From a virus (Duplodnaviria > Heunggongvirae > Uroviricota > Caudoviricetes), in the IMG/VR virus record IMGVR_UViG_2698536471_000011: a stretch of 5,642 nucleotides of DNA; one strand, written 5' to 3'. The first letter of the stretch is position 1. Every line of letters starts with the position of its first letter. The notes beneath the pieces are model-generated. The model was given only the letters and a program-made list of their open reading frames with translations. It searched no databases and was not told where the DNA came from. Positions 661-694 of the stretch are shown piece by piece. The translations under genes were made by a program, and so were the position numbers.

Positions 661-694
661 GGCATGCTTTTTACTGTCTAGTAAACAGCATGCC
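661..694. repeat. 34-bp imperfect palindrome (14 paired positions, 1 mismatch, 4-nt centre)
   Basis: GGCATGCT-T-TTTACT-gtct-AGTAAA-C-AGCATGCC: 661-668 pairs with 687-694 and 670-675 with 680-685. No flanking T-run on either strand, so a protein-binding or recombination site is more likely than an intrinsic terminator. Confidence 0.4.

Follow-up and report, generated by a model that had tools for sequence, protein, structure and literature searches.

A 34-bp imperfect palindrome confined to one lineage of the putative tail-side arm of a lambda-type, potB-targeting prophage attachment site

In the P arm of the bacteriophage lambda att site, Xis and Fis/A-tract elements and the weak arm site P2 lie between IHF sites H2 and H1, and the arm is folded onto the core (PMC4880445). 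Sp6, a prophage of E. coli Sakai, undergoes spontaneous circularisation, and K-12 lysogens with a marked Sp6 derivative at the same locus have been obtained (PMC2669165). Prophages have also been described within other prophages; the corresponding attB-in-PP sites derive from yecE, ykgJ/ecpE and ompW, without mention of potB-type joins (Nakamura et al. 2021, PMC8112680). Here we analyze a palindrome located at positions 661–694 of a stretch of 5,642 nucleotides from a virus of the Caudoviricetes (IMG/VR record IMGVR_UViG_2698536471_000011), which we refer to in its entirety as the window, and we compare it with these systems.

The palindrome, which has no strand, was characterized by self-alignment, folding and comparison with shuffled sequences. 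Its two arms, 661–675 (GGCATGCTTTTTACT) and 680–694 (AGTAAACAGCATGCC), are complementary at 14 of 15 positions and form 8 + 6 pairs interrupted by a single T669.C686 mismatch, around a 4-nt centre, GTCT; the description of a 34-bp element with these pairs and this centre, made in an earlier sequence-only reading, was thus accurate. Folded as single-stranded RNA, the plus strand reaches −18.9 kcal/mol (z = −5.05) and the minus strand −19.8 kcal/mol (z = −3.5), while none of 200 shuffles folded as well. No inverted repeat with at least 14 of 15 complementary positions and a loop of 3–8 nt arose in 300 dinucleotide shuffles of the whole window, nor in 3000 shuffles of the AT-rich leader (600–1000), and the palindrome is confirmed as real and far beyond chance. 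The distances given in the same reading also proved correct, since 297 bp separate the palindrome from the espK ATG at 991 (about 300 bp to an LRR gene had been stated) and the tfa homology, placed some 60 bp away, stops at 599. The absence of a T-run, likewise pointed out, holds for both strands, and a terminator scan was negative. No Rfam family matches the palindrome. An Rfam match to IS009 at 508–679 on the minus strand was set aside: its 86 bits fall below the gathering score of 117, they stem from the tfa coding sequence, and the alignment of its 5' third is forced.

Sakai Sp6 and EDL933 CP-933N (OI-50) carry the identical 34-bp palindrome, in an arm that differs from that of the window by two substitutions and one single-base indel. 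They also resemble the window in that espK is the last gene beside the att site, in their case that of a lambdoid prophage at potB. By contrast with Sp6, the arm in the window is joined, inside the core, to a tfa remnant near ompT/envY and not to potB. By analogy with Sp6, whose 34 bp are the same, the palindrome-bearing arm should support both excision and integration (PMC2669165).

Matches to the window were found in E. coli chromosomes that have a heavily deleted prophage beside ompT/envY. The tfa C-terminal remnant (465–599, minus strand), recognized from its annotation as a partial tfa and from alignment with the intact tfa of strain PSJ-36, belongs to a gene of the resident DLP12-position prophage. 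It is followed by a remnant of the 12-bp att core TGAATAAGAAGG (600–608, plus strand) and by a phage-supplied 3' end of potB (602–628, plus strand) that encodes KKATEIDN*, with its TAG stop at 626–628, and that is out of context in the window. We defined the core by aligning the empty potB/potC locus of K-12, the potB|espK boundary and the junction between two tandem espK prophages, the last of which reads like attP. The core corresponds to the 3' end of potB, and exactly 12 bp are common to attB (K-12 potB/potC), attR (potB|espK) and the attP-like junction. The attP form is also represented by three IMG/VR contigs with the order int-P'-core-P. In most EHEC the espK module directly adjoins potB, and identity with the window begins at 602, within the last potB codons, the phage replacing the end KKVELE* by KKATEIDN*.

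We note that lysogeny thereby changes the PotB C-terminus from VELE* to ATEIDN* (602–628; loci L002, L008 and L028) and splits potAB from potCD by the whole prophage. At the other prophage end, int is co-oriented with potC and lies about 165 bp upstream of it, so that potCD expression in lysogens may rely on transcription leaving the prophage.

In the window the core reads TG-AAGAAGG, with 'AAT' missing, and the join to tfa therefore falls inside the core. This join is common to about 150 complete genomes. Elsewhere, the DNA to the left of the core is potB, a tail-fibre gene or another site, for example one beside a dam-like methylase gene, and the type B arm described below, which lacks the palindrome, has a left context beside a cdtA-like gene. 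At least four different left contexts were found in all, every join falls inside the core, and the palindrome, wherever present, begins 52 bp past the core (17 IMG/VR contigs, 32 metagenome contigs and genome records). The joins of the arm, at its core, to tfa, to a tail-fibre gene and to further sites point to integration at secondary sites or into other prophages. The arrangement is reminiscent of attB-in-PP sites, with the end of an effector-carrying lambdoid phage joined at the att core to another prophage (tfa here, a tail-fibre gene in IMG/VR contig L015). The tfa join may be Int-mediated or, since the intact tfa shows no clear similarity to the att core, illegitimate. Neither int nor a partner att site was found in the flanks of about 8 kb examined in the matching genome, and the arm in the window is a fossil in a decayed prophage, its core broken by the fusion to tfa. 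With the core remnant at 600–608 fused to tfa ending at 599, the 'left boundary' at about 600 is an att-core junction.

Several other features of the window were recorded. A perfect 11-bp inverted repeat (CCGCAGCACGT...ACGTGCTGCGG) at 418–450 lies between a methyltransferase stop and the convergent tfa stop and is probably a terminator between the convergent genes; a weak, sub-threshold Rfam match to CssrB covers 419–481 on the minus strand. A chain of deletion remnants occupies 2807–4447 (minus strand). It includes a 96-aa ORF (2807–3097), for which the matching genome gives the annotation tail-fibre C-terminal domain protein, and a fusion ORF (3066–3923) with a portal-like N-terminus and a tape-measure C-terminus, both pieces of which are tape-measure pseudogenes in RefSeq, as well as gpW and stubs of a terminase C-terminus and of Rz. 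In the closest genome, 2013C-4974, an additional IS3 separates the terminase stub from Rz; the window is without it. Further downstream, 5284–5373 gives a weak Rfam match to the EHEC sRNA Esr41 (32 bits versus a gathering score of 102); the match takes in a terminator-like hairpin (5324–5363) followed by T6, upstream of the holin gene.

To the right of the core, the arm displays a fixed order of elements. The core TGAATAAGAAGG is followed by an IHF-like site (637–649, plus strand; ATTCAA-AAGG-TTA, with one mismatch to WATCAANNNNTTR), a 62-nt slot with the palindrome in its middle, a perfect IHF consensus site WATCAANNNNTTR (706–718, plus strand; AATCAA-ACAG-TTG) and a putative arm-type Int site TTTTGGAGAA (727–736, plus strand). 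Four arm types, which we call A to D, were recovered when this skeleton alone served as the query; the palindrome belongs to the type A lineage. The IHF-like site is conserved in all four types, as are the consensus positions of the perfect site, with the N4 segment varying in both, and the arm-type motif is invariant. The slot, measured between ATTCAA and AAATCAA, is exactly 62 nt long in every type, while its sequence is very divergent. When applied to a one-genome-per-species collection, the skeleton search returned only chance matches in unrelated AT-rich MAGs. The motif TTTTGGRGR is present in three tandem copies in the int-side arm and in one copy in the palindrome arm, with only 5 matches in a 48-kb prophage locus.

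The cognate integrase and excisionase are encoded outside the window, in related loci. Int, a homologue of lambda Int, has 372 aa, with the Pfam domains Arm-DNA-bind_1 and Phage_integrase and a match to PDB 1z1b (E = 1e-53), and is 44% identical to the phage 21 and e14 types; Xis has 89 aa and matches Pfam Exc at threshold. In typical members of the family, the int stop lies about 150 bp from the core, toward which the gene is transcribed. A shared core, an arm-binding Int accompanied by Xis, an arm motif present in both arms and IHF-type sites at fixed spacing were all found, and on these sequence features the palindrome is identifiable as part of the tail-side ('P', attR-side) arm of a lambda-type att site, with the 3' end of potB as primary target. 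The IHF, arm-type and Xis/Fis region assignments are putative, as they derive from motifs and from analogy with lambda. Phage 21, which has the closest characterized Int (44%), was discarded as a template because its att-xis-int order differs, and vB_EcoS-640R1, whose Int is identical, could not serve as attP, its record showing a prophage flanked by host DNA. No Int of the potB-module family is present at the left end of the Stx1a_10012 phage, a record that is probably composite. We also observed that a type C arm (L037), which has the common skeleton and a 62-nt slot, is found downstream of nadE, joined via a different core, ACAGATATGAAGG, which points to a sister integrase with changed target specificity.

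This layout is similar to that of the lambda attP/attR P arm (P1-H1-X1/X1.5/X2/F-P2-H2) in several respects. Both systems have a heterobivalent Int with an arm-binding N-domain and a short identity crossover core, three tandem arm-type repeats on the int side with the arm-type site(s) on the far side, and IHF-type sites between core and arm sites; moreover, the palindrome lies between the two far-arm IHF sites, where lambda has Xis, Fis/A-tract and P2 (PMC4880445). On the other hand, the two Int proteins are only 35% identical, the arm-type motif (TTTTGGRGA) and the core differ, and a single arm-type site is evident in the palindrome arm. The lambda Xis region, in addition, consists of direct repeats without a long dyad, and the sites described here are known from sequence motifs. 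A second point of comparison is lambda tI/sib, also a stable hairpin, which lies past the att core on the downstream side of int and is parted from int on integration. This element has a 12-bp stem followed by U6 and lies just outside the outermost arm site P1 (lambda 27585–27536), whereas the palindrome has no U-run, is located inside the arm and does not occur in most of the phages that have this int.

Comparison with related prophages places the cargo boundary away from the palindrome. The espK module (820–2352, plus strand), recognized from genome matches, comprises a leader (820–990) and the espK coding sequence (991–2352) for an LRR type III effector; espK corresponds to z1829/ECs_1568, with which OI-50/CP-933N/Sp6 of O157:H7 ends. 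In other potB prophages, a 109-aa YkgJ-family gene takes the place of espK, and the stretch 602–819 of the window, including the palindrome, is common to them; it is also shared by the ends of Stx1a-converting phages, without espK. Since 602–819 is shared with ykgJ-cargo prophages, and since 793–819 (plus strand) encodes MSNPNPCMT, the opening 9 codons of a ykgJ-family (CxxCxxCC) gene that was cut short by the espK module, this module starts at 820. Judged from these alignments, 602–819 is made up of the att arm, the ykgJ leader and a gene stub, with the true espK boundary at 819/820. The ykgJ-family gene is the original cargo, which espK displaced at codon 10, leaving the att arm untouched.

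The palindrome had been placed near a left cargo boundary, and this claim has to be divided: the element does adjoin a recombination boundary, namely the 599/602 break in the att core, but the boundary of the cargo is that at 819/820. Comparison with the junctions of related prophages shows that the palindrome does not coincide with the site of cargo insertion, and the idea of a recombination or insertion scar had to be abandoned. The palindrome is inherited phage DNA: prophages that never carried espK have it at an equal distance from their core, its presence does not track the cargo, and no length difference relative to uninserted relatives is seen; as the slot measures 62 nt in every arm type, there is no insertion or deletion at the palindrome.

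In other phage contexts (L085–L105), ykgJ homologues have a conserved leader with a hairpin of its own (AACCGCGGTACGT...ACGTACCGCGGTT type), between −69 and −33 from the ATG. Several of these homologues adjoin repeated GCCCC(C)AAA motifs that resemble the arm-type sites of another integrase, and this location beside putative arm-type sites would make ykgJ-family genes a habitual att-adjacent cargo. Just inside the espK module, the espK leader contains a perfect 11-bp palindrome, AAAATCAACAG-T-CTGTTGATTTT (846–868), flanked by promoter-like matches at 823–850 and 867–894.

We then turn to the distribution of the 34-bp palindrome. A query with the inverted repeat alone identified 916 places in 684 of 5426 complete genomes (1–3 copies per genome), exactly those given by a query with the 160-bp arm, and the palindrome is therefore never found outside the type A arm. 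It is thus not a dispersed chromosomal repeat such as REP/BIME, ERIC or a MITE end, a ubiquitous repeat being the outcome against which the sequence-only reading had cautioned. Type A arms (684 genomes) and type B arms (about 945–990) together account for 1635 genomes with a common int-side arm, and about 30% of complete E. coli genomes carry the integrase module. When a type A prophage (OkiPb01711) was compared with one of type B (AR435), their Int proteins proved 97.8% identical and their Xis proteins 100%. Since near-identical Int and Xis proteins serve palindrome-free type B arms, the palindrome is neither required by Int or Xis nor a specific determinant of either. The suggestion that it is a protein-binding site can thus be retained only in a general form: by analogy with lambda, it would lie in a segment where bending and recombination proteins are expected, but not as a specific site for Int or Xis.

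The four arm types were also compared by folding. An exceptional hairpin is seen in type A only (−18.9 to −23.6 kcal/mol, z from −3.6 to −5.7); type B arms are marginal (z from −0.9 to −2.3), type D arms give z values of about 0, and the fold is weak or absent in types C and D. A hairpin conserved across the family was rejected on these grounds. A 7-bp stem, TGCCGTT-TAAGGT-AACGGCR, occupies almost this position in type B arms, and contig L057 has an intermediate 5+4-bp repeat with a T/C bulge as in the window. We note, as a separate observation, that past the arm-type site type B arms contain a promoter-like sequence, TTGCGTATAAT (L030:42157–42300, reverse strand), and a 10-bp GC-rich hairpin (CCTCCCCGAC...GTCGGGGAGG) just ahead of the convergent tfa end, which could represent a small transcript or a late-operon terminator.

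Within type A, 17 distinct sequences were compared. The left arm of the palindrome is invariant in all of them, while the loop is hypervariable (GTCT, GTCG, TTTTGC, TTTTTC, ATTG, CTTGC). The right arm varies at 686, where A yields a perfect 14–15-bp stem and C the mismatch seen in the window, and at 687 and 694. Variable columns are less frequent in the stems (4/30) than in the rest of the arm (36/103; Fisher p = 0.025), and also less frequent than in the loop. Neither compensatory nor wobble changes were found in the stems of the 17 sequences, as the changes at 680, 686, 687 and 694 all break pairs (T.C, T.T, G.A). This pattern suggests some constraint on the palindrome arms, without a positive sign of selection on base pairing. 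Mutational hot-spotting at palindrome centres could contribute to the pattern.

We favour, with middling confidence and largely by analogy with lambda, a reading in which the slot provides the arm with a phased bending segment and the long dyad represents a quasi-palindrome specific to type A that the recombination machinery tolerates. Int, Xis and IHF would accompany the slot at every integration, and the slot would act, as in the lambda model, as a phased and bendable segment. The long dyad would be derived within the type A lineage; from the comparison of arm types, its most likely origin is the extension of a shorter imperfect repeat, of which other arm lineages still show a form, into a quasi-palindrome, which would be tolerated by the recombination machinery and not needed by it. 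Xis proteins of the lambda family bind direct repeats, not dyads. The conservation of the stems hints at selection on symmetric arms, which a palindrome that is simply 'tolerated' leaves unexplained.

The symmetric arms could instead act at the level of RNA, as a plus-strand hairpin on transcripts that cross the att site, although we consider this unlikely. In the lysogen, such a hairpin would stop, pause or stabilise potAB read-through before the plus-strand cargo (ykgJ or espK); in the circular phage, where the palindrome lies about 220 nt downstream of int, its action could resemble that of lambda tI/sib. The strong fold and the conserved stems around a hypervariable loop fit this proposal, as does the location of the palindrome, 32 nt past the phage-supplied potB stop in the lysogen and, like sib, parted from int on integration. 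A plus-strand gene lies directly downstream in type A only, type B running into the convergent tfa end, and two type B stem substitutions produce T.G, which pairs in plus-strand RNA only; these two changes are, however, expected by chance about one time in four. The tails on both strands lack a U-run (plus, UCUAUCCAU; minus, AAAUUUGCU), and the terminator scan was negative not only in the window but also in an intact ykgJ-type arm (L004). Furthermore, the palindrome is situated within the arm (661–694 versus 727–736 for the arm-type site), whereas tI/sib lies beyond the outermost arm site; the four stem changes in type A break pairs and are uncompensated, and phages with the same int/xis manage without the palindrome. 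An intrinsic terminator or a tI/sib element as such was rejected, since the stable hairpin is present but the U-run is absent and the position is wrong when compared to lambda tI.

It also seems rather unlikely that the palindrome is a neutral by-product of a replication template switch, slowly decaying and conserved only through hitch-hiking with a young arm. Its restriction to one lineage would be expected in that case, and the recombination proteins do not need it. The right arm is closer than the left to the type B sequence (GTAA.C.GCAT), which fits a left arm rewritten as the complement of the right, and the series from a perfect stem to one and then two mismatches, all uncompensated, is what decay would produce. 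The stem columns nevertheless vary less than the arm (p = 0.025) across lineages that are about 18% different elsewhere, and the left arm is invariant among the 17 distinct sequences.

Integration moves the palindrome from downstream of int to a position between potAB and the cargo gene, and one could imagine that the hairpin or dyad couples integration state to expression; we regard such coupling as quite improbable. Were it to occur, it would amount to a sib-like control of int without a U-run, and/or to an insulator that keeps transcription of the polyamine operon out of espK.

Finally, it is very doubtful that the palindrome serves a dimeric DNA-binding protein, of host or phage, as its operator at a cargo promoter (that of ykgJ first, perhaps that of espK now): the symmetric and conserved half-sites, the free centre and the constant 34-bp span would suit such a role, and ykgJ-type arms have a perfect TATAAT 21 bp downstream for which the right end of the palindrome would be the −35 region, but the interval from the palindrome to the ykgJ ATG yields no call of a sigma-70 promoter-like site, this TATAAT overlaps the IHF consensus, half-sites of 14–15 bp are above the usual length, no candidate regulator co-occurs with type A arms, espK is 297 bp away behind a different leader, and ykgJ homologues elsewhere (48 viral loci) have unrelated leaders without such a site, which also disposes of a ykgJ-linked regulatory site. 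With regard to specific regulators, a LexA (SOS) box was considered and rejected: CTG (674–676) and CAG (686–688) are separated by N9 where N10 is needed, they are off the symmetry axis of the palindrome, and this CTG-N9-CAG is missing from other type A variants. Informal comparison with the motifs of TyrR, TrpR, Fur, CRP, FNR and similar proteins yielded none that fits the palindrome. A sigma-54/enhancer layout (dyad, IHF site and GG-N10-GC) was also dismissed, as inspection by eye downstream found no −24/−12 element.

The palindrome is thus best regarded, with the confidence expressed above for a tolerated quasi-palindrome within a phased slot, as a lineage-specific ornament of an att arm, a well-known kind of site, and as such it is largely ordinary and of modest consequences. 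The analysis corrects the boundary of the cargo and shows the window to contain an att-core join into the tfa gene of another prophage. It also provides a sequence-level att map, with its core, IHF-type sites, arm-type motif and 62-nt slot, for an integrase module whose carriers include the O157 prophage with espK, espN and nleL. Types A and B, which operate under the same Int and Xis, offer a natural pair for asking what the segment between the two IHF sites must provide.
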